Below are positions 8,361 to 58,232 of a stretch of 64,000 bases of DNA, one piece after another. A model generated the notes under the pieces. That model ran no database searches, was not told the DNA's origin, and saw nothing but the letters and a program-made list of their open reading frames with translations. Both the position numbers and the translations under genes were made by a program. Within the stretch, counting starts at the first letter, position 1. Every line of letters starts with the position of its first letter. The DNA comes from a virus (Duplodnaviria > Caudoviricetes), in the IMG/VR virus record IMGVR_UViG_3300021387_001774, positions 160,001 to 224,000 of that record; one strand, written 5' to 3'.

Positions 8361-8647
8361 TACATACCTCGTTTATTAAAGATGTATCTGAACGTACGTT
8401 CATTCATTGTAAATATTTTTCTTTGCCTATCAATTACTATATATTCCATTGGATGTACAAGAATTGTTTCATCATTGTCTACAAGTCGTAGTTCATCACC
8501 ATCAACAAGTGTACAATCATCACAAAAAGCACCTTTCAAATATTTCGGAAATAGATGTATATTTGTGTATGAAACTTGTACAGCTAGAATAGTATTAATT
8601 GAGGGGCCATTCTGGATATCGAATAGTTCGAACTTGGGGGGTACCAT
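8360..8647 (-). CDS. small phage protein (AVQ...EYIV...F..F family), paralog of 9385-9843
   Basis: 95 aa; motif pattern shared with 9385-9843. Confidence 0.65.
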   Translation of the reverse strand: MVPPKFELFDIQNGPSINTILAVQVSYTNIHLFPKYLKGAFCDDCTLVDGDELRLVDNDETILVHPMEYIVIDRQRKIFTMNERTFRYIFNKRGM

Positions 8648-9407
8648 TTAACAGAAAATCCTCCGTTTTAATATTTTTATAAACATAATTCTCTTTATTA
8701 AAGAACCAAATAAGTGGTAAGTATGGTTTTAGATTAGATTCAAGAATCGTATCACCACACAATATCTCTTTTAGATCCCACTTATACATACAGAATTTTA
8801 TATCTTTCTGCATATTCATTTCAAACATCTTTTGAATATCTTTATGGAGTGGAATCTTCGGTTCTTTTTCACTCATTAATTTATAACGTATAGCATTTAC
8901 AGAATTTGTTTTATCTACAGAAGTTATCAAACTATACAATACATCATTCAGTTTTTCAAAATCAGCATATTCATTATTATAACCAAATATTCTATATTTA
9001 GGTTTTTCTTCAAATAGTTTATAAAGTTTATATTTCTGTTCGAACGAAAGTAGTAACCAGAAATAATAGTTACTACTATACATACAAAGATTATAAACAG
9101 TTTCATCATCCACACCAAGCTTCTTATAACTTTCTGGAAGAATAATTTTACCATTCTCTAATCCAAATGGAGTAAGATGATAAAAAATATTATCCTTATC
9201 TGGATCTCGTTCTTTTCGTTTTACTGTACCATATTCTGATGAATTTTGAGCAATAAATGTATTCTTTTTCATTTTCTCATCAATGATTACTTTTATCTCT
9301 CTATCACTGTAACCATTGCACATAAGAAATCTCATAAAATCAATATATTCATCAGGTACAGAAGCAATGTTTATTAAGCCGTAATTACGAGTTATCTCTA
9401 CCATCAC
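8595..9407 (-). CDS. hypothetical protein
   Basis: 270 aa, AAGGAG SD, in operon. Confidence 0.75.
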   Translation of the reverse strand: MMVEITRNYGLINIASVPDEYIDFMRFLMCNGYSDREIKVIIDEKMKKNTFIAQNSSEYGTVKRKERDPDKDNIFYHLTPFGLENGKIILPESYKKLGVDDETVYNLCMYSSNYYFWLLLSFEQKYKLYKLFEEKPKYRIFGYNNEYADFEKLNDVLYSLITSVDKTNSVNAIRYKLMSEKEPKIPLHKDIQKMFEMNMQKDIKFCMYKWDLKEILCGDTILESNLKPYLPLIWFFNKENYVYKNIKTEDFLLNGTPQVRTIRYPEWPLN

Positions 9408-9843
9408 TAATCTCCTTTTCTAAAGGAATATATGTCTTTTCAAACTCTTCATTCGGAACAGTTGATGTAAATCCATTATCATAAATAACTTCATACTCAT
9501 CATTATTCTTTTTTCTTGCTTTTACTATACTAATCTTTGTATAAATTTTATATTCTTTGTTATCTGGTTCTACGTATCCAGAAAACAAATATTCAAAAGT
9601 TTTAGAATCATAAATAACAAATTCTCCATTATCTAATACAATCCAATCATTCTTTTTGATTTCTAGTTTATTACCATCTTTTAACCAAAGATATGGAATA
9701 GGAAAGAAATCTGGCGAGAATGGTTTTTCTATAATTATTAAGCGTTCTTTACCTACGAACTCTTGTAGTTCTTTTGCATTTATACCATCGAACTTAATTG
9801 CTGTTAATGGTTGTTGTTTTCTCATAACTAAAGTTGTTGACAT
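9385..9843 (-). CDS. small phage protein (RK.P..AI.FDG...NDWIV...GEF...F, plus a YEVIYDNG...FEKTY module)
   Basis: 152 aa, AAGGAG SD, recognisable phage motif pattern. Confidence 0.75.
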   Translation of the reverse strand: MSTTLVMRKQQPLTAIKFDGINAKELQEFVGKERLIIIEKPFSPDFFPIPYLWLKDGNKLEIKKNDWIVLDNGEFVIYDSKTFEYLFSGYVEPDNKEYKIYTKISIVKARKKNNDEYEVIYDNGFTSTVPNEEFEKTYIPLEKEISDGRDNS

Positions 9844-9845
9844 AT

Positions 9846-10622
9846 TTACTCCTTTTGATTCAAAAGTTTAGTTATTTCTTCATTGGTTATTTTAGAAACC
9901 CTATCTTCCAATAAGAGTTTATCCAATTTCTCCACAGTCAATAACGTTTTATTAGAAGCATTAATTACTGTAGGTTTATATTCATAGTTCTTAGGAACTT
10001 CCAATTCTGCAGAATGATTTGCTGTTAACCATTCTATATATTTAGATCTTGTATGTTCTGGTATAAAACGTTCATATTCTTTATAAAACTTTTCATAATT
10101 ACCAATAATAAGATCAGGATGAATATCAAGTTTTCCATCATGAACCTGTTGATGTGATGTTGGATCTAGTGGAACTAAACCAACCATAAATTTATAATGA
10201 AGCATAGCTACTTCTTTACAGACTTCCATTTCTAGTACATATGGTTCTTCACTATTTAATTCGTCAAGTTGTTTATTCACTACAGCTTCAGTATAATCAA
10301 ACAATGTAAATGGATGATGATGAAATTCAAGTTTCATTCCATTGTCTACAGAATATCCTTTAAAGAAAACACAAGATTTAACATCAAGTGTTTTCTTTAG
10401 CATATCTATAAACCAAGAATATTCAAACGAAGGACGTATTAATGTTTCAAAGTATTTTACTAACTCAGCTTTATTAGACTCATTAATAAAATACCTTTCA
10501 TCATACGGCTCTTCATCAATTAAATCATCATCTATATCATAAACCATTTCTTTAGAAGTTTTCAATATCTTATTTTCAATTTCTTTCTCCAGTTTTTCAG
10601 CACGATCTTCTAATTTAGCCAT
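9846..10622 (-). CDS. HNH-like conserved jumbo-phage protein, paralog of 59987-60694
   Basis: C-x-FF...LEFHHHPFTLFDY...LHYK..VGLVPL...HQQVH. Confidence 0.75.
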   Translation of the reverse strand: MAKLEDRAEKLEKEIENKILKTSKEMVYDIDDDLIDEEPYDERYFINESNKAELVKYFETLIRPSFEYSWFIDMLKKTLDVKSCVFFKGYSVDNGMKLEFHHHPFTLFDYTEAVVNKQLDELNSEEPYVLEMEVCKEVAMLHYKFMVGLVPLDPTSHQQVHDGKLDIHPDLIIGNYEKFYKEYERFIPEHTRSKYIEWLTANHSAELEVPKNYEYKPTVINASNKTLLTVEKLDKLLLEDRVSKITNEEITKLLNQKE

Positions 10623-11829
10623 AATAGAAATTTACTCCTAAATTAAATACTGGAAGATTTTCTTCAGAAATATATATAATTCTATTATTTACTTTATCAA
10701 ATACTGCTTCTTCTGGTATAGTATCAGAATTAATTATCTTTTCAATAACTGGATCCTTATTAACATTATAAATAGTAGGATACATAGTTTTTATAAACTC
10801 TTTAAAAATATGCAAAACGTTCAATTCGTCAATATAAGGATTATTTTCTTTATTATTATTTGATGAAATTTCTATCATTCTAAGTTTGACTGGGAATTCT
10901 GGTAATTTATTTTCAATCTGACCGAATATTCCTGCATTGATATAATCAATAAAACCATTAAACTTATCAAATTCAGCTTTATTCTTAAACAATTTACCAT
11001 TAACTGGTTCAAAAGTAAGTTTTAGTTTACTTTTATAATCTTTATAGTTATAAACAAAGAATGGATCAACAATTGAACCAATATAATCGATAGTAATTTT
11101 ATCATTAGAAACATTCATTGTTGCACCATCAATTGTATCGTAGAGCAATGTTGTTTTACCAAGACTTAACATAAATGGATTAGCATTAAATGATGCAGAT
11201 ACAACACCATCAACTTTATCACTAAATGATAATTGATAGTCTTTAAGTTTTGTCATACATTCGATAGAATTTGCTGAAAATAATGGAATAGCAGTATTCC
11301 TATTTACAAATGTAATATAAGATGAATCAATTACAGAATCATAAAGATCTATATACAATCTAGAATTCTTTCTCAAATCATCTGCATTAAATTTAAGACA
11401 ATATTTATCAAGTTCAGCTAAAGTTCTATGTAATGCAAGAATATATTTCTTAGCATGAATTGTATTTGAAATATTTGCTTCAGTTATAGCCATACCAAAC
11501 GTTGCTACAGCCGTTGTTAAGCTTTTTACATTTATTGCTACTTTGGTAACGAATCTGTTTATCGTTGTATTTAAAGCTTTTGGGAAACGATTTATATACA
11601 TATCGTTTAACATGTATTTGATAACTTTATTAAAGAAAATATCCATCTGAGCTTCATGATCTATATAAACATAAGAACGTTCATCAAAAACTTTATCATC
11701 ATCTCCATCATTAGTATAACAACTACACAGGTATTTAAAAAATACAGGAGTGGATACTTTACCGTCTGAAAAATTTGTAACATCATCAAGTTTTATTCCA
11801 AATTTGTTACTTAATATATCTGTTAACAT
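10615..11829 (-). CDS. hypothetical protein
   Basis: 404 aa, AAGGAG SD. Confidence 0.8.
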   Translation of the reverse strand: MLTDILSNKFGIKLDDVTNFSDGKVSTPVFFKYLCSCYTNDGDDDKVFDERSYVYIDHEAQMDIFFNKVIKYMLNDMYINRFPKALNTTINRFVTKVAINVKSLTTAVATFGMAITEANISNTIHAKKYILALHRTLAELDKYCLKFNADDLRKNSRLYIDLYDSVIDSSYITFVNRNTAIPLFSANSIECMTKLKDYQLSFSDKVDGVVSASFNANPFMLSLGKTTLLYDTIDGATMNVSNDKITIDYIGSIVDPFFVYNYKDYKSKLKLTFEPVNGKLFKNKAEFDKFNGFIDYINAGIFGQIENKLPEFPVKLRMIEISSNNNKENNPYIDELNVLHIFKEFIKTMYPTIYNVNKDPVIEKIINSDTIPEEAVFDKVNNRIIYISEENLPVFNLGVNFYYG

Positions 11830-11920
11830 AAAAACTCCTTAATTATTAATTTATCAAAATATATAATAATATATTTAAAAGATTAATTATTTATATATTT
11901 TGTATATGAGGAGTTCATAT

Positions 11921-12691
11921 ATGAGTGTGACAGTTGACAAAGTCATAAACAATAACATCAATTCACATATAATAAATTCAAATATAGTTGAGTATAATAT
12001 AGCTAAAGCTTATCCAACTATTCTCTCAATGTTAGATCCAAGGTATGAATATTTATTAGACTTAAGTAAAGATCAATACATCGAAGAAATAAATAAGATA
12101 TTTTCCTTGAATAAGGGTATAAAGAAAGATATAGAAAATAAAACAATTGAATTATACAATGACTGGTTAACTAGAAATAGAATAAACAAGAATAACTTTA
12201 TTGCGACAACGACTGATAGTATTATTATAAATAATCAATTAGCACCTATAAATAATATTGGTGATCTAGTATTTAGAAATAAAGACAAGATATCTTACAC
12301 AAGTTTATTTTATATAAATAAAGATATCTATATTCTATTTGATAGAATTACAAAGAAATTAAGAATATGTGGAGTATATAAAGATCCATTCATCAATACT
12401 TATCCTTTTGTAAATAAAGTACTTAAGGATTTGTGTTGTATATGTAACGAATATACATATGAAACGAAATATGATTGTTTAAGACGTATAGGAAAATTAC
12501 GTTATAAATATATCTGTTCAGATGATAAAACTATTTATGGAGATATACTCCATAATGGTGATTATAAATATAATATAGATGGAAACTTTGTATATACACC
12601 AGAATTATATACTTCTAAAGACGATATAAATCTTGTGATTGAAGATAATTACATGAATTTTATTCTACCTTTAATTCAAAGTCTGTTCTAG
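11921..12691 (+). CDS. divergent family-B DNA polymerase palm-like protein
   Basis: IVEYNIAKAYPTIL resembles motif A (DxxSxYP) and TTTDSIII resembles motif C; start moved to ATG 11921 after the GAGGAG SD. Confidence 0.55.
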   Translation: MSVTVDKVINNNINSHIINSNIVEYNIAKAYPTILSMLDPRYEYLLDLSKDQYIEEINKIFSLNKGIKKDIENKTIELYNDWLTRNRINKNNFIATTTDSIIINNQLAPINNIGDLVFRNKDKISYTSLFYINKDIYILFDRITKKLRICGVYKDPFINTYPFVNKVLKDLCCICNEYTYETKYDCLRRIGKLRYKYICSDDKTIYGDILHNGDYKYNIDGNFVYTPELYTSKDDINLVIEDNYMNFILPLIQSLF

Positions 12692-12702
12692 GGAGGAACG
12701 TA

Positions 12703-13095
12703 ATGAATATATTTAAACGGTACAAACAAATGGAAATCTATTATTCTGAAATACGAATAATTAATAAGTGTACTTCAGATATAAAAGATCTGATGCATGA
12801 AACATCTATAATAACAAATAAACTCTTAGATATAGAAAAGAAATTATCCAATGTGGATAAAAATGATGAATCTATGAAAGCAGCATTATTAATAAATTAT
12901 GAAACAGAAGAAAAAGAACTTGAATCGATTGTTGAAAAAGCTATAAATTATGGTATAAGTAAATTTGGTCTATGGCTAAGGAGAAAAAGAAATGACAAAA
13001 CTATTATCTATATTTCTCATTTCTGTAGAAAAAATATCGATTACTTATTAAAGAAACAAGAAAAAATAACAAAGAAAATTAAGTCTTGGTTCTAA
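12703..13095 (+). CDS. hypothetical coiled-coil protein
   Basis: 130 aa, GGAGG SD. Confidence 0.7.
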   Translation: MNIFKRYKQMEIYYSEIRIINKCTSDIKDLMHETSIITNKLLDIEKKLSNVDKNDESMKAALLINYETEEKELESIVEKAINYGISKFGLWLRRKRNDKTIIYISHFCRKNIDYLLKKQEKITKKIKSWF

Positions 13096-13100
13096 TATAT

Positions 13101-13124
13101 AAGAGTACACATATGTGTACTCTT
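13101..13124 (+). terminator. intrinsic terminator
   Basis: Perfect palindrome AAGAGTACACATATGTGTACTCTT followed by a T-tract. Confidence 0.8.
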
Positions 13125-13251
13125 TATTTTTTTGTTTACTGTTCAAACTATACTGTCTAATCATATATTATATTTATGGAAGATAGAAATAGAGTAGGGT
13201 GTTACCGCACCCTACTCTATAAATTTAATTATCTTTCAAGGAGGTGATTGT

Positions 13252-13419
13252 ATGGTAAGAAAATACATCTATTTTACATCCAAAATGGATGAGAATGGAA
13301 ATGTATGTAAAGACCCCGATTTTATTCTTCTCGATAGAGATGAATATAAACGAACCCTAGGGGTTTATCCAGAACAAACTGGAGCCAGCTCAATGCTAGT
13401 TCCAAAAGACTGGAGATAA
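13252..13419 (+). CDS. 55-aa small protein, paralog of 55948-56094 (absent from the ORF track)
   Basis: AAGGAGGTG SD; MVRKYIYFTSKMDENGNVCKDPDFILLDRDEYKRTLGVYPEQTGASSMLVPKDWR; KY.Y, DE.GN, L.RDE[YF].R, P...GA conserved with the paralog. Confidence 0.8.
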   Translation: MVRKYIYFTSKMDENGNVCKDPDFILLDRDEYKRTLGVYPEQTGASSMLVPKDWR

Positions 13420-13493
13420 GACATACTTTCTTATTCTCTCATGGGCTCAAAGAAAGATAATATACTATAATGTATATTATTAAATAGAAAAAT

Positions 13494-13576
13494 AAACTCC
13501 ATAATGAAGACTCGTTGAAGACATTATGGAGTTTGACAGGTCAACTGATATTAACGTATCAGTACCTGTTTTTTTT
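13494..13576 (+). ncRNA. putative two-hairpin structured RNA (cassette 3' element)
   Basis: 13-bp stem 13494-13506/13522-13534 covaries with copy 2; ACAGGT/ACCTGT stem followed by a U-tract. Confidence 0.6.
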
Positions 13577-15770
13577 ATTTTTTAAGCGTATAATAATCTC
13601 TAGTAAATTCACAAATATAATAATCTTTATCTACTTGGAACTCTGTATTCGTTGAAGGAACTCTTACATATTCATCGCCTTCTTTTGTGAAGTAGACTTG
13701 ATGTTGATTATAACCTAAAGCCTTTTCATCTTGGGAAACAAACCTGAATTCCTTTTTAAATGACGTTACATGAGCATCACCAATGTATGTTTTCTTTTCA
13801 GAGTCATATCTATAATAGACTGTATTCTCTATTGGACCATAAAGAAGTTCAGTATAGTTAAGTTTATGATAAGCATCATTTATCTTATCTCTTCTTACAA
13901 CTTGAAGTTTATAAGCAGAAACTCCTTCAAATACATCATCATATCCATGTCTATACCATTTCTCTGGAGCAAAGAAAACATTTTCACATTTATTTACAAA
14001 GTCATGACAAACACCATTCATTATAACAATATCATCAATATTCCAGTTTTCATTTATGAAATAGTTCTTTGTAGGTTTATTAAGTTTTATTTCTTCTCTA
14101 TTTTCTACAACTTCGATATCATAAGCTTTAGCAGCAATATTATCAAATTCGATAATAGCGTAAGTTCTATTTCTGAATTGTTCTACAACTACATCAAATG
14201 CTGAATGAGCATAATGATAGTTATCAGAACCAGAGGTTTCTCTCCACTCTTCTAGAGCTTGAGAATATTCTTGATATGCTGCATTGATACCTTCTTCATC
14301 GTCATTATGTAACTTTAAAAAGTCTTCAATCTTTGGTGATGCTACAATATCGTGAGATACTTGAGTAGAAAGATATTCTCTCATTCTTGAATACATTTCT
14401 GTGTAAAGAATATCGAATTCTAATTCGATAGTATTCAAGAATATAGATCCATCATCTTGTACTTCCCAAGAATCTTTATCAACAATCGTATTACCACAAA
14501 GAAGAATACTTTTATCTTTATTGACCTTATGTGAGAAATTAAGTTTATTTACCAACCAATAAGATTTGTTTGCTTCTTCTGCTACCGTTTTTAAAACCTT
14601 TCCCGTATGTAAAGGTTCAGTAAATGACGTTATAGAAATATTATCCCACTTGTAAATACGGATATCGAATACATAATTGTAACCAATCTTTTCTCTAGGT
14701 ATATCATATTTGATTATATCTATACCTTCTGCATTCTTTTCACCTACAGTTTTAGTACGAACTAAATAATCATCAATATTCACACCACTAATAAGTGTTT
14801 TAGGTTGTATAGCAGCATATTTAACAACGTCTTTAAGATATATTTGATTTTCTGATGGTCCTGGTATATAACCAACAATAACACCATTGAGAATGATAAA
14901 CAGATTAGTTAAATCTGTATATGGTTTATTCTCATTATCAATAAATGTCAATAATAAGTCATCAAACTTATGATTATTATTATTAGTATAAGTACCATTT
15001 GCAACAGTTTTTTCATCAATACTTGCTAATTTATAAGAGAATCTTGGCGAATTAGTAGCATGTACAGAATCTTTAGCATCCTTTTCTGTATCTGTAAATA
15101 CAATTCTAGGACACTCTTCAAACTTATATGTACCATCACCACGTTCAACAGAGTAAATGTAAGCGCTCTTATTGTATTGATCTCTTACAAAATACATAGC
15201 TTTAGGAATTTTGTTAACATCGGTAATTTGACAAAGAGTTACGAAATAATTATCTGTAAATGTACAATCGAATATTGTATTATCGCACACTTTAGTATAT
15301 ATAGAAGATTCCATAATATTTTCATTAATTGTACCTGTAAAGAAAGTACTGAAAATATTATCGGAATAATTTTTTACTGCAAAGTGAGGTCTAATCTTTC
15401 CAAGATCTATCCACTTACCATACTTATTTTTATAGTATTCATGTTGGAGTCCATATTTAAAAATCATTTCACGAATTACATCTAAGAAACGATATTGTCT
15501 ATGGGCTATATTTTTTTCTTCAGCAGTATCTATATAAGATGGTAAGACATGAAAAATAGGATGTAGACCAGATCTATCAACTCCAGCTTCATAGTTCTCA
15601 ATTCCATATGTAATATTTTGATCAGTTTGAGCATAGAGATAATCCAACGTAACTGCAATAGGAGTTATTCCATGCCCAAAATCAAATACTACAGTTCTAT
15701 TATAGAATTGATCAACCTTTTTAAAAGCTTGAGAAGTAGATATTACAGATTCAATAGCTAAATCTTCCAT
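13575..15770 (-). CDS. probable virion structural protein
   Basis: 731 aa, beta-rich with repeated LNG/MNG turns, last gene of a large operon preceded by the NACA-N6-TA motif. Confidence 0.7.
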   Translation of the reverse strand: MEDLAIESVISTSQAFKKVDQFYNRTVVFDFGHGITPIAVTLDYLYAQTDQNITYGIENYEAGVDRSGLHPIFHVLPSYIDTAEEKNIAHRQYRFLDVIREMIFKYGLQHEYYKNKYGKWIDLGKIRPHFAVKNYSDNIFSTFFTGTINENIMESSIYTKVCDNTIFDCTFTDNYFVTLCQITDVNKIPKAMYFVRDQYNKSAYIYSVERGDGTYKFEECPRIVFTDTEKDAKDSVHATNSPRFSYKLASIDEKTVANGTYTNNNNHKFDDLLLTFIDNENKPYTDLTNLFIILNGVIVGYIPGPSENQIYLKDVVKYAAIQPKTLISGVNIDDYLVRTKTVGEKNAEGIDIIKYDIPREKIGYNYVFDIRIYKWDNISITSFTEPLHTGKVLKTVAEEANKSYWLVNKLNFSHKVNKDKSILLCGNTIVDKDSWEVQDDGSIFLNTIELEFDILYTEMYSRMREYLSTQVSHDIVASPKIEDFLKLHNDDEEGINAAYQEYSQALEEWRETSGSDNYHYAHSAFDVVVEQFRNRTYAIIEFDNIAAKAYDIEVVENREEIKLNKPTKNYFINENWNIDDIVIMNGVCHDFVNKCENVFFAPEKWYRHGYDDVFEGVSAYKLQVVRRDKINDAYHKLNYTELLYGPIENTVYYRYDSEKKTYIGDAHVTSFKKEFRFVSQDEKALGYNQHQVYFTKEGDEYVRVPSTNTEFQVDKDYYICEFTRDYYTLKK

Positions 15771-15787
15771 TATCTACTCCTCTTAAA

Positions 15788-17731
15788 CTAAGCAATTACC
15801 TGCATAACTGTTTTAAACACTTCGATGTTAATTAACGTAGAAGTATCATCAACCTCAGTAACAAACTTAGCAAATATGAAGTTACCAGTTCTATTATTGT
15901 TAAGTAATTCATTAACAACATCGTCTTTGTATACATTAACTGTAACTTGAGATGCTGTTGTATTAATCTGTGTTAATGGTGAAATAGGAGTAAATGTTGC
16001 ATCCTTAACCATAAACAACTGTACTTTAGAAGGTTTAACAAGAATACCATTGATCATTCTAGCATACTGGTCTCTAATATAGATTCCTTCTGCATTAAGA
16101 CCCAATGTGATTGTCTTAGAAGCAATAGCATCTTCATACTTAATAGTAGCAAGATTACATTTATTAACAGTATTGTTATTCCATGCATATGTAAATGCAA
16201 GAGAACTAAATAGTCCATCTGTTTCATAACCAAATTGTCTGTAGTTTGTAATAGGCTGTACAAACAATCCTGTTCCAGCACCAGAACCGAACTTAGCAGT
16301 GAATCTAAGGTCTTGAAGAATACCATTAGATCTAACTTGGAAGTTGAACTCTGTATCTTGTGCTTGAATATTTTGTGTATATGTAAAGATAACACACTGT
16401 TGATAAGGATCGTATGTAACAGGACAAGCTGTGAAATCAACAAGAGTCTTTTCATCACCACTTGACTGCACAACTTTCTTACTATCATAGAATGCTTTAG
16501 AAGCATTTGTGATAATACCATCAGAGCTCATTGTGAATACTTTAAGCTTGTATACAACAACTTCAGAACCAATAGAAACGTTAAGATCTGTAACATTATC
16601 AGTCCAAATAACAGGAAGAACCTTATAAAGTTTAGTATAGTTATTTTCCATAACCTGGAACTCTATAGTTTCTTCAATCTTTGAACCAGTTGGATTACCG
16701 TCCGAATCTACTGTTGACCAATAAGTAAATGTTACTGGGAAACGATCGCCTACTGCAGCTCCAGTAGTATTTACATCCCAGCCTTCTCTAGTCAATACAG
16801 GTGTATCGAGTTTATCTGTAATAAGTTTTTCAATACCGTCATCATATACAGCAATAACAGCAAATGAAGTTGTCTTAGATAAATCTTCACCAGCATAAAT
16901 ACCATATACTTTAGAATCAGTATTAGCTGTAATATTATTCTTGAATACAGTAATCTTGAGTTTAACAACTCTAGCTGATGGCAATTGTGTGGCTGTATCA
17001 ACCATAGCTTGAACAGCTTGGAATTGCTTTGTATCAATCAATTCACCATCACTATTGAAGAATTCGACCACATAGAACTCACCATTTATCAATGAAGAAT
17101 ACTGAGCGTCATCAGGATTTGAATCTTCGAAAATCTTAGCTGTACCCATTCTTGTATATCTTGTACCATTGACTGCATCGTTCACAATATGCATACCAAT
17201 CTTAACATCAAGAAGAGTACCATCCTGAACCACCCCTGCAACATATACTTTTTGGTTATTTGTATTCAGAGTTTGTCTACTAATAGTATAATAACTGTAA
17301 TTTGTTGGGAATACTAATGCTGAATTTGGGAATAAAGTTTTTCTACCAATATCATAATAGAACTTATAAGTCTGACCATTATTATAAGCAGACATCAACT
17401 GATTCAAAACACCACGTGTTTCATAATACTTAAGAAGATCTGCTACTTGTTTTGTTTGAGAAGTATAAGTATATTTGATTTCTCCACTAATTGGATCTTT
17501 AGTGATATCTGCTACATAAATATTTCTATCATCGTCGTAGAACTGTTCACCCTGATATGGTGCCAGCAAGTTTGCATTAAGTTCTGCTCTTTCAGATTCA
17601 TCAAGATCTTTTATATATGGATTATCTTTCATTAAACGAATATTGATTATATTCGCAGCAAAGCGACCTTTATAACCATTCTTTGCTACTGAAGCATACG
17701 CTTGTCTTTCAGGACTTGTATCTTCTGCCAT
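15788..17731 (-). CDS. probable virion structural (baseplate/tail) protein
   Basis: 647 aa, Thr/Val/Asn-rich, Ig-like V.AVYDDG segment, AGGAG SD. Confidence 0.7.
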   Translation of the reverse strand: MAEDTSPERQAYASVAKNGYKGRFAANIINIRLMKDNPYIKDLDESERAELNANLLAPYQGEQFYDDDRNIYVADITKDPISGEIKYTYTSQTKQVADLLKYYETRGVLNQLMSAYNNGQTYKFYYDIGRKTLFPNSALVFPTNYSYYTISRQTLNTNNQKVYVAGVVQDGTLLDVKIGMHIVNDAVNGTRYTRMGTAKIFEDSNPDDAQYSSLINGEFYVVEFFNSDGELIDTKQFQAVQAMVDTATQLPSARVVKLKITVFKNNITANTDSKVYGIYAGEDLSKTTSFAVIAVYDDGIEKLITDKLDTPVLTREGWDVNTTGAAVGDRFPVTFTYWSTVDSDGNPTGSKIEETIEFQVMENNYTKLYKVLPVIWTDNVTDLNVSIGSEVVVYKLKVFTMSSDGIITNASKAFYDSKKVVQSSGDEKTLVDFTACPVTYDPYQQCVIFTYTQNIQAQDTEFNFQVRSNGILQDLRFTAKFGSGAGTGLFVQPITNYRQFGYETDGLFSSLAFTYAWNNNTVNKCNLATIKYEDAIASKTITLGLNAEGIYIRDQYARMINGILVKPSKVQLFMVKDATFTPISPLTQINTTASQVTVNVYKDDVVNELLNNNRTGNFIFAKFVTEVDDTSTLINIEVFKTVMQVIA

Positions 17732-17752
17732 AATTCTAAAATCTCCTATATA

Positions 17753-20700
17753 TTAATTATTACGTGACCGTATTGCTTGCTCAGCAAGTATTGCGGCTTG
17801 TAAATCGGGGTTTTCTGAATCAGGTGTAGTGTAATTACATACATCGACATCTGAACCTGTCCACATAACACCATTTCTATCTGGTGCTAATGGGAAATCT
17901 TCTGGATAAAGAATATTAGATAATCTATTGTTACACATTTCGATAACAGTATTATCCAATCTCGTTTCTTCATCGAATTGCTTAATATCTTCCTCAGAAT
18001 TACGTTTTTCTAAGATTTGAATAAGCATTTCGAAAAGCATACGTCTTCTTTCTCCAAAATTCATTGCTGGATAAACTATTTTAATTTTTTCTGTATCCCA
18101 ATCAACTTCATATGGTGGATTATTTACATCAGGTTTCAAACCGTCATAGAATCTTCCAGAATCAACAACAATATCAATTCTATTACCAATGATTACGTTT
18201 TCAAATACAGAGAAATAATTAAGAACTTGGGGATCAATATCTTGACCTTTAAATCCATAAGTTCTAGTTTTTCCAGACTTTGCTAACCAGTTGAGATACA
18301 TTATCTCTAGTGTATCTGTTAAATATGTATTTGTCTCTTCTTCAGCTAATGGATTTTCAGCTTGCTTTACAGAGTCAACATCGATAACAAAACCGTGATT
18401 ATCTCTATAAATATTGAAGAAGTTTCTAGCTTTTTCCCATGCTTCATACCTAAGCTCAATATCATCCAACGATGAATCTGGAGCAGGTATAGAAAGTTCA
18501 TAAGAAGAAGTCTTATCATATTCATAACCGTGTTCTTTAATATAATCTACATATTCTTTATAATATGGATTATCATAATCTTTACCCAAATCTCCAACGA
18601 AATCAGAATAATATGGGTCAACTTTATATACATAATCAATATTTGGTTTATTTCCATCAACATGTTTTGAAGGATCACAATTCCAGAAAATACTTTCAAG
18701 AAGTTTTTCAAATGGACTTGGTTCATAAAGATCTATATATTCTTTAAGTTCGATATCCTTATAAATACTATTTGTAGTAATAAGAATAGAACGTATAGGT
18801 CTTGTAATATTATGTACTCTTATAAGTTTATCAGAAAGAATATCTACGTCATATTCAGACATTTTTAATCCATTGACATAAATATTCATGTATTCTGTTG
18901 ATACAGGATATGGTAATTCAGAAAGATATACTAAACCAAATCTATTATCAATCTCCAAGTCATCATAACCTACGATAAGAATATTTGTTTTATTAGAATT
19001 GAACTGTACAACGATTTCATCATTATGAGCAGTTTGATTCTTGAATATTACATATGAAGTAGATAACTGGGGATTTTTCTCAGGATTCATGAATGTATAA
19101 TCTTTACCAAATATTAATTCTTTTTTATTCTTTGTAATAATAGGTTCTGAGTTATTTATATATGGAATATAATCATCCACAAAGTCTACAACTCTTTCAC
19201 CTAATTCATTAGTTTTATATGCTGTATAAGAGTTGTAAATAGGAATAAGAAGATCATTCTCTTCCATGTATGAGCCATCAGTATTATCAAAACGAATACT
19301 TTCACTTACGTTATATTGTTTTGCTAATAGATAGAAATTACCATTAGTTCTTCTAGCATCATATTCATGCAATTGAATTTCTATACTAAGTTCAGTTTCT
19401 GTCTTAGAAACAACTCTAAAATGTTTAACCATTCTCCATCCATATTTTTCTGGACCTGGATAAATATAATAGAATTCTTCGTTTCTAGAATCATACCAAT
19501 CTTTAGCTACTTTTTCAATAGCACAAATATCATCAGAAACTAAACCTTTTTCAAATGGTAAGTCGTCTATATTATACGTTTTCTTATATACGTATTCACC
19601 TTGTCTATTTATCTCTTGTGTAAATCCATTATTGATATTCTCTCTATAAATGGTTTTCTCTTTATAAGAGAGATCAAACTGGAACATTTCAACAATATTT
19701 ATACCAGACTTATATCCTGTTCCTTCATCATTTTCAACTAATGGAAGTAAAGCATCTTTACTAATAGTAATATAATCAAAATCGTTCTCACGTACTATAG
19801 TAACATATTTAGAATCAAGTATTTCATGATTCAAATATATTTTATAATAAACATTTTGTTCAGGATCAGTAATTTTAGAAATAGAACTCACGTTTATATC
19901 TTGAGTATTACCCATTACAATAAAGCGTTTACTCTTATTGCTGAATTGCTCTAGCAAACGTCTAAGCAAAGATGGTCTTTCAGAAATAAGCATCTTAGCT
20001 CTTTCTGAAGGAGACGAAGTATTGAATGCGAGATTATCATACTTTTTGATAGCTTTCTCTACATCAAATAATTCACCATTCTTAGAAAGCACATCTTTAA
20101 AAGATATATTGTATAAAGGATTATCAAAAACTGAATATGAAAGACTACCCTTCATCTTATCAACACATCTTTTTACACCAAGCATATTTAAAAGATAATA
20201 ATCATCTCCATAAGTTTTAAAACCGAGTTCATCTACTTTAAAACCTATATCTTCGATAAAGAAATCAATTTTAGTTTCATCGAAGGATTCAGCTACTTCT
20301 TTAGTATAATAAATAACATTTTCTTCGAAAGCATTCAAATGACCTAAACGTACATATTCATTATTAAGATTCTTTGTATAATAAATTTTATTTTGTGCAG
20401 GTGGTACACCAACTCTATGAGTAACCTTAACATATTTTTCTGTATCTACAGTATATTCAAAACTGTATCTGGATGTTTGAGTAATCTTTGTATCATCGAT
20501 TCTCTTTCCGTCATAAAAAAATGATACAGCAGATTTAGTTATAGGTCCACCAATAATATCAACAAAATAATTATCGTTCAAATAAAAATGAACTCTAGAT
20601 CCATTATTATTCATTACTGATTCATCAAATTTATGTCTATGAACTATATCTCCAAGAATATACAATTCAACATCGGAACCAATACAACTAGTAGGAAGTT

Positions 20701-21565
20701 GAAGTGTTAACATATCTTCGGTAAGTTCCATTTCGTTAACTTTTTCGAGATATCCATTAACGAACAAAACTATTTTATCAAGAGATATTTCTTTTCTACT
20801 ACTTTTATTATATTGGAATTTTGAATCAGAAAGATCTATTACATATTCATTTTCTGTTGGACTAAATCTATCATAAAAAAGTTCAGATCCAGCTTGACGA
20901 TAATCAATATTGATTACATCATCAATCATTGATTTTTTATCATGAATACTTCCACCCAAATATTTCTCTGGAATAAATACATCAGTAAATGATTTATTAG
21001 CATAAACAAATATTTCGTTATCTGGAATTTTTTTACCATTTATATAGAGAAATAATGAGTCAAGTTCATATATCTGAAGCTTATCGTTTCTTTGTAAAGG
21101 AAATGAATTATATGTATTCTCTATAAGAGATTTCTCTTCTTTAAAAGAATAAACTTCTTTATTTCCTTCTATTCTAGGTGTATTTAACTCATAAATAGAT
21201 TCAACGTTAGTTTTATCTATATATGTATCCTTAATATGTGCAGAATTACGAAAATTTAAAACTGCATTAGTTTTAAATTTAAAATAAGGAATTGGAGTAG
21301 AAATTACACCTGTATTGTCAGTATTTCTTTCGGTATCTGTAAAAAAATTAGACATATCGATAAATAGTCCATCATTTAAGATACCTTTATTTTTATTGAA
21401 TAAGTCTAACTGGGATTGAAAATCATTTCTTGTTTCTCCAGTTTTTATGTATTCTTGTCTTATATCATATGTATTATTTGCATCTGATACTCTCGTCATT
21501 GCTTGATATGAAGGATCATTGTTTCGGAGTAAGATGTAGTTATTTTCATCTAAAATTACACTCAT
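17753..21565 (-). CDS. large probable virion structural protein
   Basis: About 1270 aa with repeated (L/F)Y(I/V)NG.K motifs; start moved to 21565 (GGAG SD, promoter motif at 21592-21603). Confidence 0.75.
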   Translation of the reverse strand: MSVILDENNYILLRNNDPSYQAMTRVSDANNTYDIRQEYIKTGETRNDFQSQLDLFNKNKGILNDGLFIDMSNFFTDTERNTDNTGVISTPIPYFKFKTNAVLNFRNSAHIKDTYIDKTNVESIYELNTPRIEGNKEVYSFKEEKSLIENTYNSFPLQRNDKLQIYELDSLFLYINGKKIPDNEIFVYANKSFTDVFIPEKYLGGSIHDKKSMIDDVINIDYRQAGSELFYDRFSPTENEYVIDLSDSKFQYNKSSRKEISLDKIVLFVNGYLEKVNEMELTEDMLTLQLPTSCIGSDVELYILGDIVHRHKFDESVMNNNGSRVHFYLNDNYFVDIIGGPITKSAVSFFYDGKRIDDTKITQTSRYSFEYTVDTEKYVKVTHRVGVPPAQNKIYYTKNLNNEYVRLGHLNAFEENVIYYTKEVAESFDETKIDFFIEDIGFKVDELGFKTYGDDYYLLNMLGVKRCVDKMKGSLSYSVFDNPLYNISFKDVLSKNGELFDVEKAIKKYDNLAFNTSSPSERAKMLISERPSLLRRLLEQFSNKSKRFIVMGNTQDINVSSISKITDPEQNVYYKIYLNHEILDSKYVTIVRENDFDYITISKDALLPLVENDEGTGYKSGINIVEMFQFDLSYKEKTIYRENINNGFTQEINRQGEYVYKKTYNIDDLPFEKGLVSDDICAIEKVAKDWYDSRNEEFYYIYPGPEKYGWRMVKHFRVVSKTETELSIEIQLHEYDARRTNGNFYLLAKQYNVSESIRFDNTDGSYMEENDLLIPIYNSYTAYKTNELGERVVDFVDDYIPYINNSEPIITKNKKELIFGKDYTFMNPEKNPQLSTSYVIFKNQTAHNDEIVVQFNSNKTNILIVGYDDLEIDNRFGLVYLSELPYPVSTEYMNIYVNGLKMSEYDVDILSDKLIRVHNITRPIRSILITTNSIYKDIELKEYIDLYEPSPFEKLLESIFWNCDPSKHVDGNKPNIDYVYKVDPYYSDFVGDLGKDYDNPYYKEYVDYIKEHGYEYDKTSSYELSIPAPDSSLDDIELRYEAWEKARNFFNIYRDNHGFVIDVDSVKQAENPLAEEETNTYLTDTLEIMYLNWLAKSGKTRTYGFKGQDIDPQVLNYFSVFENVIIGNRIDIVVDSGRFYDGLKPDVNNPPYEVDWDTEKIKIVYPAMNFGERRRMLFEMLIQILEKRNSEEDIKQFDEETRLDNTVIEMCNNRLSNILYPEDFPLAPDRNGVMWTGSDVDVCNYTTPDSENPDLQAAILAEQAIRSRNN

Positions 21566-21591
21566 AATTGCTCCATATATAGATAAAAGTA

Positions 21592-21603
21592 TATAGTTTT
21601 GTC
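21592..21603 (-). promoter_or_regulatory. late-type promoter NACA-N6-TA (representative copy)
   Basis: GACA-AAACTA-TA. Same pattern at 31815(+), 34811-34822(-), 35505-35516(-), 38953-38964(-), 39460(+), 41686(+), 43125(+), 45266-45277(-), 47933(+), 52770-52781(-), 59956(+). Confidence 0.7.
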
Positions 21604-21656
21604 GATAAAGCAAAAAATATAGAAACTGTGGATTTACCACAGTTTCTATTATTTGT

Positions 21657-33477: not shown

Positions 33478-33795
33478 TTATTCTGTTACTGCTTTATTAC
33501 CAGCTTCTTTTCTGATCTCTTCAAGATCATTCCTCATAATCTTTTCAATATCAGAAAATACTTCACCGACAAGTTCAGTACTAGCGATGACCTTTTCAAA
33601 TGAATTAAAGAAATGCTCATTTACTGGATCTCCAGGTTTTTCGATTCTTCTCTTTTTAATATATTCTAGTATATCACTAGAAATATTAATGAGATTATTA
33701 CGAACGTTAATAATAGGTTCGTATATTTTTTTCACGATAGTATCGAATTCTTCAGAAGGATCGATACCTTTACGATCTTTTTCACAAATAGACAT
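33478..33795 (-). CDS. hypothetical helical protein
   Basis: Start moved to 33795 (AAGGAG SD); early-type promoter at ~33869-33882 and leader hairpin at 33824-33852. Confidence 0.7.
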   Translation of the reverse strand: MSICEKDRKGIDPSEEFDTIVKKIYEPIINVRNNLINISSDILEYIKKRRIEKPGDPVNEHFFNSFEKVIASTELVGEVFSDIEKIMRNDLEEIRKEAGNKAVTE

Positions 33796-33884
33796 AATAT
33801 AACTCCTTACGATAAATAAATTTAATGGAGTGAGTGAAAACACTCACTCCATTTGTTATCGTCAGTAATATAATATATAATTAT

Positions 33885-34865: not shown

Positions 34866-35483
34866 TTATGGTTCAATAGTTACACAATTTTCTTCAGTTT
34901 TGTTTGTAGAACCGTATCCACCTTCTCCACGAGTGTTATTAAAACGATCGGGTGAGAATTCAGGTACATTTACAACATCACCAACACGAATTGGTTCAAA
35001 TACAATCTGGAAAATTCTTTCACCAGCTTCAATTATGATATCCTCTTTAGAACAATTGAAAACTGTTCCTGTGATTTCTCCACGATAATCAGAATCAATT
35101 CTTCCAGGTGCATTAACAAGAATAAGTCCCTTATCTCCAGTGGAAGATCTCATACTGAGTGATCCTACTGAACCAAAAGGAATCTTCATCTTTACACCTG
35201 TTCTAAGCTTATGATGTATTTCACCAGGCTTAATAGTCACCGTTTCCATAGATTTAAGATCATAACCAGCAGAACCAGAAGTTTTCTTCTCAGGCATCTG
35301 TTCCATAGTAGCATCTTCACAAAGAAGAACTTCTACACGGAAAGGTTTTCTAAACCTACGTCTACCATTAAACCTTTTTCTAAAGAACTTACGACGAGGT
35401 CTTTCTGTATACTCTGTTGTTTCTTCTACATCTCTTTCCTCATCACCTTCATACTCTTCATAACGAATCCTTTCTTTTTTCAT
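34866..35483 (-). CDS. dut: trimeric dUTPase with acidic/Arg-rich N-terminal extension
   Basis: SAGYDL, RSS, GRIDSDYRGEI, ERIFQ, RGEGGYGST. Confidence 0.95.
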   Translation of the reverse strand: MKKERIRYEEYEGDEERDVEETTEYTERPRRKFFRKRFNGRRRFRKPFRVEVLLCEDATMEQMPEKKTSGSAGYDLKSMETVTIKPGEIHHKLRTGVKMKIPFGSVGSLSMRSSTGDKGLILVNAPGRIDSDYRGEITGTVFNCSKEDIIIEAGERIFQIVFEPIRVGDVVNVPEFSPDRFNNTRGEGGYGSTNKTEENCVTIEP

Positions 35484-48006: not shown

Positions 48007-48016
48007 TTTTATAAAT

Positions 48017-48090
48017 GTCTCTTTAGCTCAGTTGGTTAGAGCTCCAGCCTGTTAAGCTGGATGTCGTAGGTTCGAGCCCTACAAGAGACG
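48017..48090 (+). tRNA. tRNA-Asn(GTT)
   Basis: Full cloverleaf: GTCTCTT/AAGAGAC, anticodon loop CTGTTAA, TTCGAGC T-loop; CCA not encoded. Confidence 0.95.
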
Positions 48091-48170
48091 TTCTGCTAAC
48101 AAATAACATTCATAGGCTGGTGTGTTTTTGTTCTCCTTTTTATGGTAGCTTGTTAAGCTACCATATTTTT
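48091..48170 (+). ncRNA. tRNA trailer: hairpin, CTCCTT anti-SD linker, terminator
   Basis: AACAAA.../...TTTGTT imperfect hairpin, CTCCTTTT, TATGGTAGCTT/AAGCTACCATA terminator. Confidence 0.5.
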
Positions 48171-53510: not shown

Positions 53511-55502
53511 ATGAATCTTCTTAAAGATACACCGTGTACATTCCGTTATGGTTTGTATCATACATCAGATCATAAAGTTCTTATAGTGTTTCTAAAATCT
53601 AAAGAAGAAATTAATGATTATTCTAGTACTATTCTAGAAACACTCTATGAAAATGCTATATTTCTTAATTATAAAATAAATAAGAACGAAACCGTTAAAG
53701 TTACATGTAGTGATAATCAAGTAACTATGAAACAATTCGATTCAGATATTAACAATTATTGTAAAAAATATGGTAATACTACAGATGAAATACGTGTAAT
53801 AAATGCAACACCAGAGCATAAATTGCTTTTTGGTATTGATGTATTTACTACTATAGTAAATAATACAAAGAATCTGTATATGGAACTTGGTGAAAGTGGT
53901 TTTCATGTTAGTTCTTCAGAGTTTAATACGCTTGATACGTTTACTATTCAAACAGGTAAGTTATATCCAGAATCAACAGTTAATCTTTATGTAAAGAAAA
54001 TATCTGTTATGAATCTAGAAATAACTGTAGCTAATAAAGATGAAGATATTCATGCTTTTAACTTTATTATTTCTTCGTTTGCAAATATAATTTATCTCAA
54101 ACTCTATTCTACTATTACTACAATTATTACTGCTGGTTCTAAAGAAGGCGAAAATATTTCTAATGCAAAACTTATTTCTAACTATATTGAATTTTATGGT
54201 GAAGAAAAAGTAGAAGATAATAATAAAGAACGATTAGGAATATTTGGATTCAAGAGTGCATTAATTGGTGAGATTCAAGTAAATGAAGAAGTTGTTGTAG
54301 GTAATATTCTTAAAGTTGATAAATTAGTTTCATTTACTTTAAATAGATTTCATAGAAAGATTAATTCTATGTCTAATGGATATGGGGTTTGTATATATAG
54401 AGTAGCTAATGTAAATCTTTCTGATTTATCATATGAGATAACTAAAGATTCCGATATTCCTAAGGATGTATCTATTGTACATTTCCTTAAAGATACAGAT
54501 AGTGGTTTCCATAAAAAGATATTTTTATACAATTCTTCTATTAAAAATGCGACCGATAATAATATTACGTTACTTTCATTAGAAGAAACAACTGTAGAAA
54601 ATGTTTATATTTCTGATTGTGAAATTGGTAATGGAGTAACATTTATAAAGAAACACGACGATACTGAAATATTAAAATTAACATTTAATAATATTACTAT
54701 GGATGTTATAGAAGATATCTTGTTTAATAATGTAGATAAACTCTATTTTACAAATTGCATATTTACTACTCTTGGTACTATAAGTGTAACTAGCGAATTT
54801 ATAAGTATCAACGGAGGAATGTGGAAGTTTAAGAAGTGTGAACTTGGAAATAGTAACTTTATTTCACATAATGTAAATATACAGAATGTTGAATTCCATG
54901 GAGACATCTTTAATGTATTAAATGATAGAGCAAATTCTCTAGATGGAAAATTTTTCGATAATGATAGTAAAATAGATGTAGAAAAAATAACTGTTGATGG
55001 ATATCAGACATCTTTAGCTGGTACCGTGTTATATAGCAAATCGTTTGTATGTGGTTGTGATAAAACACTTACTTTAACTCGTGCAACTATAGATATAAAA
55101 GAATCCTCAGAAATTACAGCAAATTGTTCATTGTCTGGTACTCTTATGGCTATTAGTGATGATCCAGAATACAAACTAAACATTAAAGTAGAAGATAAAG
55201 AGAAGTTCTTATCTAATAATACCTTAGATATTATAAGTATTGGTGGAGAATCACCAATTATTAAATGTATTACAAATAATACATTAAAGGTGAAACTTAT
55301 AAATGATAGTAATGATATTTTCTATATTGATTATCTTAGTGATTATAATTCTGATCAGAACTCTAGAATAACTTTTGTACCATTATTTGATAATCCTATA
55401 GATTACAAAGTTATCACAGATACTGAAAAACTTGTTCAGATAAATAAAATGGAATCCTCCAAAGAAAATAGCGATATAGTTTTTGAAGTAATCAAAAAAT
55501 AA
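53511..55502 (+). CDS. hypothetical protein with probable beta-helix region
   Basis: 663 aa with repeated I/F-x-N/D-C-x-I/F strand patterns; AAGGAG SD. Confidence 0.75.
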   Translation: MNLLKDTPCTFRYGLYHTSDHKVLIVFLKSKEEINDYSSTILETLYENAIFLNYKINKNETVKVTCSDNQVTMKQFDSDINNYCKKYGNTTDEIRVINATPEHKLLFGIDVFTTIVNNTKNLYMELGESGFHVSSSEFNTLDTFTIQTGKLYPESTVNLYVKKISVMNLEITVANKDEDIHAFNFIISSFANIIYLKLYSTITTIITAGSKEGENISNAKLISNYIEFYGEEKVEDNNKERLGIFGFKSALIGEIQVNEEVVVGNILKVDKLVSFTLNRFHRKINSMSNGYGVCIYRVANVNLSDLSYEITKDSDIPKDVSIVHFLKDTDSGFHKKIFLYNSSIKNATDNNITLLSLEETTVENVYISDCEIGNGVTFIKKHDDTEILKLTFNNITMDVIEDILFNNVDKLYFTNCIFTTLGTISVTSEFISINGGMWKFKKCELGNSNFISHNVNIQNVEFHGDIFNVLNDRANSLDGKFFDNDSKIDVEKITVDGYQTSLAGTVLYSKSFVCGCDKTLTLTRATIDIKESSEITANCSLSGTLMAISDDPEYKLNIKVEDKEKFLSNNTLDIISIGGESPIIKCITNNTLKVKLINDSNDIFYIDYLSDYNSDQNSRITFVPLFDNPIDYKVITDTEKLVQINKMESSKENSDIVFEVIKK

Positions 55503-55836: not shown

Positions 55837-56228
55837 TTACTGTTCAAACTATACCATCTAATTATATATTATATTAATGAGGTAAAGATTAGGGAGGGTA
55901 CACCACACCCTCCCTAAAATTGTGTTATCTCAAAGGAGGTAATCAGTATGCTTTTTAAATACTATTATTCGTTCCTAGACGAAGATGGTAACCTGAAAGC
56001 TGATCATACTTATCTTAGTAGAGATGAGTTCATCAGAATTACAGGTGGAATAGATCCTGTTGAAGCTGGTGCCGAAGTTTACCGAAGGCATTAAATTTCA
56101 ACAGGATCAAGTTCTTTGAGATAATATACTATAATGTATAATATTAAATAGAAAAATATTCTTTATAATGAAGCTTCGTTGAAAACATTATAAAGAATGA
56201 CAGGTCAACTAACAGTACCTGTTTTTTA
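55837..56228 (+). repeat. dispersed cassette copy 2 (homolog of 13137-13576)
   Basis: Same order of conserved blocks as copy 1, with compensatory changes in stems. Confidence 0.9.
55948..56094 (+). CDS. 48-aa small protein, paralog of 13252-13419 (absent from the ORF track)
   Basis: AAAGGAGGT SD; MLFKYYYSFLDEDGNLKADHTYLSRDEFIRITGGIDPVEAGAEVYRRH. Confidence 0.8.
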   Translation: MLFKYYYSFLDEDGNLKADHTYLSRDEFIRITGGIDPVEAGAEVYRRH

Positions 56229-56285
56229 TTTTTTCTGTTCAACGTGCAAGTATAATTATATATTATATGTATGGGAGGTGTTAAG

Positions 56286-56989: not shown

Positions 56990-56999
56990 AAATATTTTT

Positions 57000-57073
57000 G
57001 AGCCTATAGCTCAGTTGGTTAGAGCTGCAGACTCATAATCTGTAGGTCCTTGGTTCAAGTCCAAGTAGGCTCA
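57000..57073 (+). tRNA. tRNA with CAT anticodon (Met or lysidine-Ile2)
   Basis: GAGCCTA/TAGGCTC, loop CTCATAA, TTCAAGT T-loop. Confidence 0.93.
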
Positions 57074-57076
57074 TTT

Positions 57077-57198
57077 GGTAATAGGAATGAAGATAGAAAG
57101 GTTGTTACACAAGAAATCTTTTTATTGAGATATGTCTTTGAGTGTACAATAGGGGATATATCGAGATAAAATAATATTTTCATTCATTAACTATTGCC
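57077..57198 (+). ncRNA. putative structured RNA in tRNA spacer
   Basis: GGTAATAG/CTATTGCC, GAATGAAGATA/TATTTTCATTC and GATATGTCTTT/GGGGATATATC nested stems. Confidence 0.5.
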
Positions 57199-57212
57199 GT
57201 TAGATAATAATA

Positions 57213-57328
57213 AACAACTCAAGTGTATTAAAACTGAGACAATGATAGATAATCGGCCGTAAAAAATCTTGTTTTCTAAACTCTTTATTATCATCAGATA
57301 AATAAAGAGCTAGTTTTAATGAGTTGTT
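57213..57328 (+). ncRNA. putative structured RNA (3-way junction) in tRNA spacer
   Basis: AACAACTCA/TGAGTTGTT, ATTAAAACT/AGTTTTAAT, GAGACAA/TTGTTTT, CTCTTTATT/AATAAAGAG. Confidence 0.5.
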
Positions 57329-57334
57329 AATTTT

Positions 57335-57399
57335 CGTCTTATAGCTCAGTGGTAGAGCGGTGGACGCATAATCCGTTGGTCCGAATCCAAGTAAGACTC
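57335..57399 (+). pseudogene. degenerate tRNA (CAT) lacking the variable loop and part of the T-stem
   Basis: GTCTTA/TAAGAC acceptor, canonical D-arm, loop CGCATAA (G33), TTGG-TCCGAAT-CCAA abutting the anticodon stem. Confidence 0.65.
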
Positions 57400-57468
57400 A
57401 TATTTTAAGTATTTAAACTAAATATAATATAATTATATATTATATTAGTGAATAAAGAAATTTATTTT

Positions 57469-57549
57469 GGGGAAGTGGTGGAATGCAGACACATGAGCCT
57501 TAAGAGCTTACGCCGTATTGGCATACGGGTTCGAGTCCCGTCTTCCCTA
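57469..57549 (+). tRNA. tRNA-Leu(TAA)
   Basis: GGGGAAG/CTTCCCT, loop CTTAAGA, long variable arm, TTCGAGT T-loop. Confidence 0.92.
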
Positions 57550-57550
57550 A

Positions 57551-57660
57551 GGCAGAAAACATAAGTCTATCGTGAAAAGGGATTAAGTTCCCCTATGATA
57601 GATGGTCGAACTAGGATGGAATATCCTCAGGAAGAGAGTTTTGCACGTATTAGATCTTCC
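57551..57660 (+). ncRNA. putative pseudoknotted RNA directly after tRNA-Leu
   Basis: GCAGAA/TTTTGC, TCTATCGTG/TATGATAGA, AGGAT/ATCCT, crossing GGAAGA/TCTTCC. Confidence 0.5.
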
Positions 57661-57672
57661 AACTTTGTTTAA

Positions 57673-57820
57673 GGTATAGCAAAACGGCTAGTCATTGATA
57701 CGTATCATTAGGTGATAGGACTTCTTAAGCGTAGTTCAAACCATTATAGTTGAAACTTATTGCTGGGAAGACTTAATGATATTAGTACTTTGATTGTGAG
57801 TTCGATCCTCACCTATACCA
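57673..57820 (+). ncRNA. tRNA-like RNA with a long rod replacing the anticodon arm
   Basis: GGTATAG/CTATACC-A acceptor, GTGAG-TTCGATC-CTCAC T-arm, stemless GG-containing D region, four stacked helices. Confidence 0.7.
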
Positions 57821-57823
57821 ATC

Positions 57824-58150: not shown

Positions 58151-58157
58151 TTTTTAT

Positions 58158-58230: not shown

Positions 58231-58232
58231 AG

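Follow-up and report, generated by a model that had tools for sequence, protein, structure and literature searches.

A mobile early-gene cassette with a predicted late antisense off switch in an AR9-like jumbo phage

Among described loci, the aapA/IsoA system of Helicobacter pylori (PMC5416894) and hok/Sok resemble most closely the cassette reported here. [quoted passage not shown] Toxicity, 3' processing and RNase III cleavage belong to those systems, whereas the present cassette is known from sequence alone. A hydrophobic membrane peptide is the rule in most type I toxin families, though not in all.

The PeSL cassettes of the T4-type phages RB49 and phi1 are similar in another respect: units of an early promoter and a stem-loop flank small accessory ORFs and are gained, lost and shuffled in tandem between related phages (PMC2839356). 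Mini-circles that arise by recombination between cassettes are a PeSL trait (PMC2839356). For phage AR9, the transcription study gives early and late promoter registers, reports seven late promoters that drive antisense RNA, and states that late transcription requires prior protein synthesis (PMC5312081); the late register is AACA-6N-TA/G(+1) (PMC7598289). We found no description of a cassette of the present kind in jumbo phages in the open-access literature.

The virus record is 263,686 bp long (the 264-kb genome; 29.5% GC) and contains the 64,000-nt window, the whole stretch of DNA that was analysed, to which coordinates refer unless the genome or a locus is named. Since it encodes two RNA polymerase (RNAP) beta-type sets and a homolog of a subunit of the AR9 non-virion RNA polymerase (nvRNAP; E 5e-41), we regard the virus as an AR9-like jumbo phage. 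Its relatives seem, from the names of their records, to come from ruminant gut metagenomes. The window also carries tRNA genes for Asn, Met, Leu, Lys and Gln (48016-48091 and 56999-58231), and a weak tRNA-like match was noted at 57335-57399.

The cassette is present three times in the 264-kb genome, and a genome-wide search returned no copy beyond these. The sequence-only reading, on which this work builds, had counted two. The third (c3) lies outside the window, at genome 131,692-132,083 (L001:2693-3084). All sequences named earlier in copies 1 and 2 (c1 and c2) were found where they had been placed. The elements of copy 1, followed by copy 2 as a whole, are these:

13136..13153, plus strand: left end of the cassette with the upstream element ACTGTT, which stands 13-14 nt before many early promoter cores
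13157..13178, plus strand: early promoter of the virion RNA polymerase (vRNAP), TATATTAT-6N-G, inferred +1 at G13178; 17.9 bits with a genome-derived matrix, in the AR9 register (PMC5312081)
13178..13186, plus strand: 5' end segment, predicted to pair with the pre-SD box and so to free the SD; from a consensus fold with two-sided changes and a cross matrix
13189..13220, plus strand: GC-rich hairpin, with compensatory changes
13228..13237, plus strand: pre-SD box, for which pairing predictions give three partners that exclude one another (5' end, SD, 3' arm)
13238..13245, plus strand: Shine-Dalgarno sequence AAGGAGGT, by its sequence
13252..13419, plus strand: 55-aa ORF for a soluble mini-domain (beta-hairpin and helix) of a seemingly undescribed family; from pN/pS, the model of a paralogue, and homologs
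13452..13461, plus strand: 3' arm, able to pair with the pre-SD box; in the predicted antisense RNA, nt 3-12 would be the complement of this arm
13463..13474, minus strand: putative late promoter of nvRNAP, TACA-6N-TA, facing the ORF, inferred +1 at 13463; 9.8 bits, AR9 register
13178..13463, minus strand: predicted late antisense RNA of ~270-290 nt over ORF, SD and leader, from the promoter match
13494..13534, plus strand: 13-bp hairpin, variable (short in c3, nearly lost in c4)
13536..13576, plus strand: terminator with a CA-bulged ACAGGT/ACCTGT stem and a U tract; it forms the right end of the cassette
55837..56229, plus strand: copy 2, with early +1 at 55879, 48-aa ORF at 55948-56094, antisense late +1 at ~56127 and terminator at 56200-56229

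As had been claimed, the non-coding parts are better conserved than the ORF: over aligned columns, the identity of c1 and c2 is 0.74 in the leader, 0.62 in the ORF and 0.87 in the 3' part. The leading 18-mer is present but is not specific to the cassette, since the upstream element that it holds recurs at many early promoters of the genome. Copy 1 is preceded by a 130-aa gene and converges on a minus-strand block of ORFs of 731, 647 and 1295 aa (flanks considered, 8595-21640 and 53511-55502). On a contig of GCA_016852305.1, the copy-1 site holds another paralogue and a 44-aa ORF.

Promoter matrices were derived from the genome's own upstream regions, with the cassette ORFs left out. The early matrix was built from 60 sites and the late matrix from 40 sites (RACA-6N-TATA) ahead of long genes, and the two reproduced the AR9 registers, TATATTAT-6N-G(+1) and AACA-6N-TA/G(+1), respectively. 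Unlike in AR9, G stands at -11 in over half of the genome's late promoters. The early promoter of copy 2 (26.3 bits) is stronger than that of copy 1 (17.9 bits). Copy 3 has a 7-nt deletion in the early promoter core, which is retained in relatives, and keeps its ORF and its antisense promoter; it is probably silent in the present genome.

The palindromic block in the 3' part had been taken for early promoters on both strands. It fails the early matrix on either strand, scoring between -9 and -1 bits where real sites reach 15.6 or more, and holds one late-type site on the minus strand (9.8 bits in c1, 7.6 in c2 and 9.8 in c3). By its sequence, the conserved 3' palindrome is a candidate late promoter on the opposite strand. 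When antisense late scores were compared behind 211 genes, all three copies ranked among the top five. The c1 site was outside the training set; it scores below the weakest training site (11.1 bits), its T at -11 is rare (2 of 40 training sites), and 55 sites in the genome are equally good.

To us, the convergence of unrelated sequences on an antisense late site near the stop codon seems a stronger argument than the c1 score. In L023 and L170, a different sequence supplies the late site, which scores 11.7 bits and closely follows the stop codon. The site of L172-L176 (7.3-9.4 bits) overlaps the last codons or comes immediately behind them. L122, L166 and L185 show the plain AR9 late consensus with TG on the antisense strand; by our own estimate, plain AACA-6N-T[AG] is expected by chance about once per ten 100-nt stretches. 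In L022, a near-identical late-promoter block has been relocated behind the terminator. The candidate site of L183 has a 7-nt spacer, and L177 has no antisense late site. Read on the minus strand, the GC-rich hairpin at 13189..13220 would be a weak terminator and likely marks the end of the antisense RNA. Two degenerate loci were also seen: L022:640-745 is a truncated remnant (leader, SD, a few codons and an antisense late-type block) directly before an intact cassette, and L176:2919-3063 holds a frameshifted family member with an intact antisense promoter.

We propose that the cassette is a mobile early gene that is shut off by a late cis-antisense RNA, a reading that we favour and to which we give about an even chance. 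It would be a self-contained unit of 370-440 bp with a built-in off switch. At infection, as the promoter match and the timing in AR9 suggest, the vRNAP would make an mRNA of ~400 nt. The new 5' end is predicted to pair with the box before the SD, in competition with the box:SD hairpin, so that the ribosome site of copy 1 would be open in nascent RNA and would close in part as the 3' arm emerges. The protein, of 43-55 aa, may then act early in infection; its most likely mode of action would be to bind a host protein or a nucleic-acid-processing enzyme, in takeover or counter-defence. Once present, the nvRNAP would fire an opposite-strand promoter located at the stop codon or shortly behind it; a match to such a promoter is seen in many lineages. 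The antisense RNA would be fully complementary only to its own copy, with its 5' end closed by the long-range helix, and would block or destroy the remaining mRNA, so that synthesis of the protein would end before late development. An RNA-regulated, mobile small-protein unit had been suggested from the sequence. This is supported by the antisense promoter, by alternative folds of the leader, and by the finding of an empty site and of gains in tandem; early promoters on both strands and a conserved pseudoknot, which were part of that suggestion, did not survive.

Predicted RNA folding bears on this proposal. The transcripts of the three genome copies fold far better than shuffles (z ~ -10), and no existing Rfam family matches them: nothing reached a gathering score, and the best weak matches lay far under the cut-offs. 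For homology and covariation, nhmmer and pairing tests were used in place of a covariance model. The best-conserved helix joins the 5' end to the pre-SD box and is kept in all 12 leaders tested. The cross matrix of 5' ends against boxes in these 12 leaders is near-diagonal, each 5' end fitting its own box type best or nearly best. When the same pairing was ranked among 35 early leaders of the genome, the top three were c2, c1 and the related leader at 33793-33863. For c4, L022 and a large part of the second clade, strong pairing of the box with the SD is predicted.

The helix between 13228-13237 and 13452-13461, for which compensatory changes had been claimed, holds up in part. Complementarity is real in clade 1, where it beats shuffled tails in 10 of 10 variants (no more than 1 of 300 shuffles attained the duplex energy). 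Of the four longest matches of box to 3' arm among 179 genes, three belong to the copies in this genome. However, the helix is minor in the full-length mRNA of copy 1 (P 0.04-0.08, against 0.97 in copy 2), it is absent from L022 and the second clade, and it shows few two-sided changes, a count that 356 of 500 shuffles reach. It starts at nt 3 of the predicted antisense RNA and closes the antisense fold in 10 of 10 variants, and thus may serve both strands. As for the pseudoknot, c1, c2 and L022 have the loop that would form it, but c3 and c4 lack this loop, although the partner is invariant and already paired in the terminator; a conserved pseudoknot was rejected because of the loss in c3 and c4.

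Opening of the copy-1 ribosome site is predicted to cost 1.2 kcal/mol in nascent RNA and 5-6 in longer RNA. The medians for 59 other early genes, which served as the control, are 3.2 kcal/mol nascent and ~5.5 longer. The cost for copy 1 is no higher than for these genes, which argues that copy 1 is not specially silenced. In c4, L022 and the second clade, the site is mostly predicted to be closed even in nascent RNA (5-9 kcal/mol), and in full-length RNA the cost amounts to 12-16 kcal/mol in c4 and 11-16 in most second-clade copies. These modelled closed sites would fit a silenced toxin message better than an early gene that is merely shut off late, and a plain late shut-off leaves the retention of three to four divergent copies unexplained.

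The main rival, possible in our view though doubtful, is a genuine type I toxin-antitoxin module whose toxin is soluble. Here, the early mRNA would be stored in folded form and activated slowly by 3' trimming, and the late antisense RNA would remove it only if infection proceeds. Should late transcription fail, owing to host defence or to loss of phage DNA from a carrier cell, toxin would be made and the cell arrested, as by an addiction module or dead-man switch. The toxin reading is still live because several traits recall aapA/IsoA (PMC5416894): many divergent, tandem and mobile copies, each with its own predicted antisense RNA; a 3' arm that, in c4 and c3-L007, reaches across the entire SD and includes G-U pairs favouring the mRNA strand; and copy 3, which lost 7 nt of its sense promoter and kept the antisense promoter, like ghost copies. 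One relative's family member is frameshifted as well, and the SD hairpin has P ~0.88 in four of the six second-clade copies folded. On the other hand, an antisense promoter of the late class would place the supposed antitoxin after the mRNA, which is the reverse of the usual type I order, and the antitoxin could not pre-empt the toxin. The ribosome site of copy 1 is not unusually closed, and L177 and L183 are intact copies with no or a weak antisense site. The peptide had rightly been described as soluble: its best 17-aa hydropathy window is 0.06-0.66, and it has neither a membrane helix nor a hydrophobic helix. Moreover, no copy was found in 185,579 prokaryote genomes (GTDB), a search limited by its peptide patterns.

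The likeness to type I loci that was seen in the sequence thus extends to the anatomy and stops at the promoter class, the copy-1 ribosome site and the peptide. We do not class the cassette as type I toxin-antitoxin because its peptide is not hydrophobic and because, to judge from the class of its promoter alone, the antitoxin would be neither constitutive nor made first: the antisense site matches the late matrix but not the early one. Late shut-off of an early gene is preferred because the antisense RNA cannot precede the mRNA and nascent copy 1 looks translatable. We consider it rather unlikely that the cassette is a two-polymerase fail-safe, in which a new family of soluble toxins, with mRNA from the vRNAP, would be cancelled only by antisense RNA from the nvRNAP and would spread as a selfish cassette. 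If this is true, a block to phage development or the loss of phage DNA would in each case lead to arrest of the cell, whether infected or a carrier.

Further copies were found in relatives at about ten different sites. A search for empty sites, which had been suggested as a check, gave one: genome 25,570-25,581 is empty, whereas L007-L012 hold there, before the tail-tube gene, a c3-type cassette with 93% identity (L007:323-695, L009:2883-3255). The inserted DNA runs from the promoter upstream element to the terminator T tract and replaces 11 nt without target duplication; in L007/L009 it begins at the position that matches the left end of copy 1 (13136..13153). An insertion sequence or MITE was rejected, as there is no target-site duplication at the empty site and the inverted repeats are internal, not terminal. 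In L002 and L130, a fourth paralogue stands in tandem before copy 2, between repeats of the promoter upstream element. L122 has a different paralogue at the copy-3 site, and a second phage, a 276-kb relative, has four copies at other sites. All loci with enough flank to compare resemble the present phage genome except L166, which has no nucleotide match. L122, L130, L138 and L146 came from a metagenome scan with a loose terminator pattern, which returned mostly chance matches. The unit is present in some relatives and absent from others; its gain, loss, tandem duplication and transfer from one intergenic site to another presumably occur by DNA recombination that involves neither a transposase nor target-site duplication.

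Parts of the cassette occur apart from the protein family. The 3' hairpin and the CA-bulged terminator also stand, in relatives, behind unrelated early genes of 76 aa (L146:700-1010, with a hydrophobic N-terminus) and 116 aa (L138:670-1170), and both sites have other content in the present genome. In the window, an unrelated 105-aa ORF (33478-33863, minus strand) has the same leader type, i.e. an early promoter and a stem of 5' end and pre-SD box around a hairpin; it has no SD masking, no notable antisense late site and no Pfam match.

As in PeSL cassettes, an early promoter and a stem-loop terminator flank the ORF, and the unit is gained and lost between relatives (the empty site and the tandem gain). 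The cassette might be an ordinary accessory early gene in a reusable frame of promoter, leader and terminator, with a leader that only stabilises the RNA and an antisense site that is incidental or insulating. We regard this as improbable. The leader at 33793-33863 and the terminators of L146 and L138 do show the frame in use with other genes, and most early leaders of the genome start with a hairpin. However, the antisense late site accompanies the protein family from clade to clade although sequences and terminators differ, and few other genes have one behind them. In the second clade, the site lies across the final codons, where conservation of the protein is highest.

Purifying selection acts on the ORF, with pN/pS of 0.14-0.32 in six comparisons (0.17-0.24 for the copy-1 ORF). 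The model of the copy-2 paralogue (pLDDT 93.7) is globular, with a beta-hairpin, a helix and a short helix. Iterated searches gave 7, 18 and then 51 clusters of 43-100 aa, none of which bears a family name; P0078, P0079, P0081 and P0084 form a subfamily of 70 aa whose members have an additional segment at the C-terminus. Pfam, PHROGs, PADLOC, PDB sequences and ESM Atlas features gave no significant match and no toxin family, and annotated phage records gave no DNA match and one protein match at E 0.2. Fold searches in BFVD, PDB and Atlas produced no clear match, which does not in itself make the fold novel. To judge from these searches, the family appears to be undescribed. No Pfam match supports an XkdX-like reading.

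AR9-like phages can have uracil DNA, and the protein could be a p56-like DNA mimic that inhibits the host uracil-DNA glycosylase (Ung) early, a function compatible with late shut-off. Despite a similar hairpin turn and helix start, this is very improbable: the top wide fold match, VMY22 p56-Ung (Z 3.3, rmsd 4.9 over 41 residues; phi29 p56 at rank 8), is within background, the profile probability is 0.3%, the motif E-x(2)-Y-x(0,2)-G (PMC10303552) is absent in register, the net charge of family members is 0 to -5, and the genome has a dUTPase-family gene. That gene lies at 34905-35300 on the minus strand. A search of the phage genome found neither thymidylate synthase A nor Ugi, and a Ugi gene was rejected.

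If our preferred reading of an early gene shut off by late antisense RNA is correct, one 400-bp unit would set two phage polymerases against each other. The unit persists in at least two phage clades while its sequence changes, and so offers a direct test of antisense shut-off of early genes in jumbo phages. The protein family itself, apparently undescribed, well folded in the model, of 45-55 aa, multi-copy and mobile, is a good candidate for a function in host takeover, in counter-defence or as a toxin.

Compared with aapA/IsoA and hok/Sok, the sense and antisense strands would here be read by two phage polymerases at different times, the antisense last. Moreover, the predicted antisense RNA would cover the whole ORF, and the peptide is a soluble folded domain. 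PeSL cassettes have a sigma70-like promoter read by the host polymerase (PMC2839356), whereas ours has a phage vRNAP promoter; it also has a predicted three-way structured leader, a candidate antisense late promoter and one protein family that stays with the frame. The early and late promoter registers are the same as those in the available part of the AR9 study, which does not describe its antisense transcripts within a repeated mobile small-protein cassette (PMC5312081); the base at -11 differs. The p56 Ung inhibitor of phi29 and VMY22 (PMC3711442, PMC10303552) is likewise an early phage protein of ~50 aa with a beta-hairpin followed by a helix, but it gives no significant sequence or fold score; its Ung-binding motif is absent from the cassette protein, which is less acidic. 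Judged by its layout and distribution, the cassette would work like a small-protein locus under cis-antisense control and move like a PeSL cassette.
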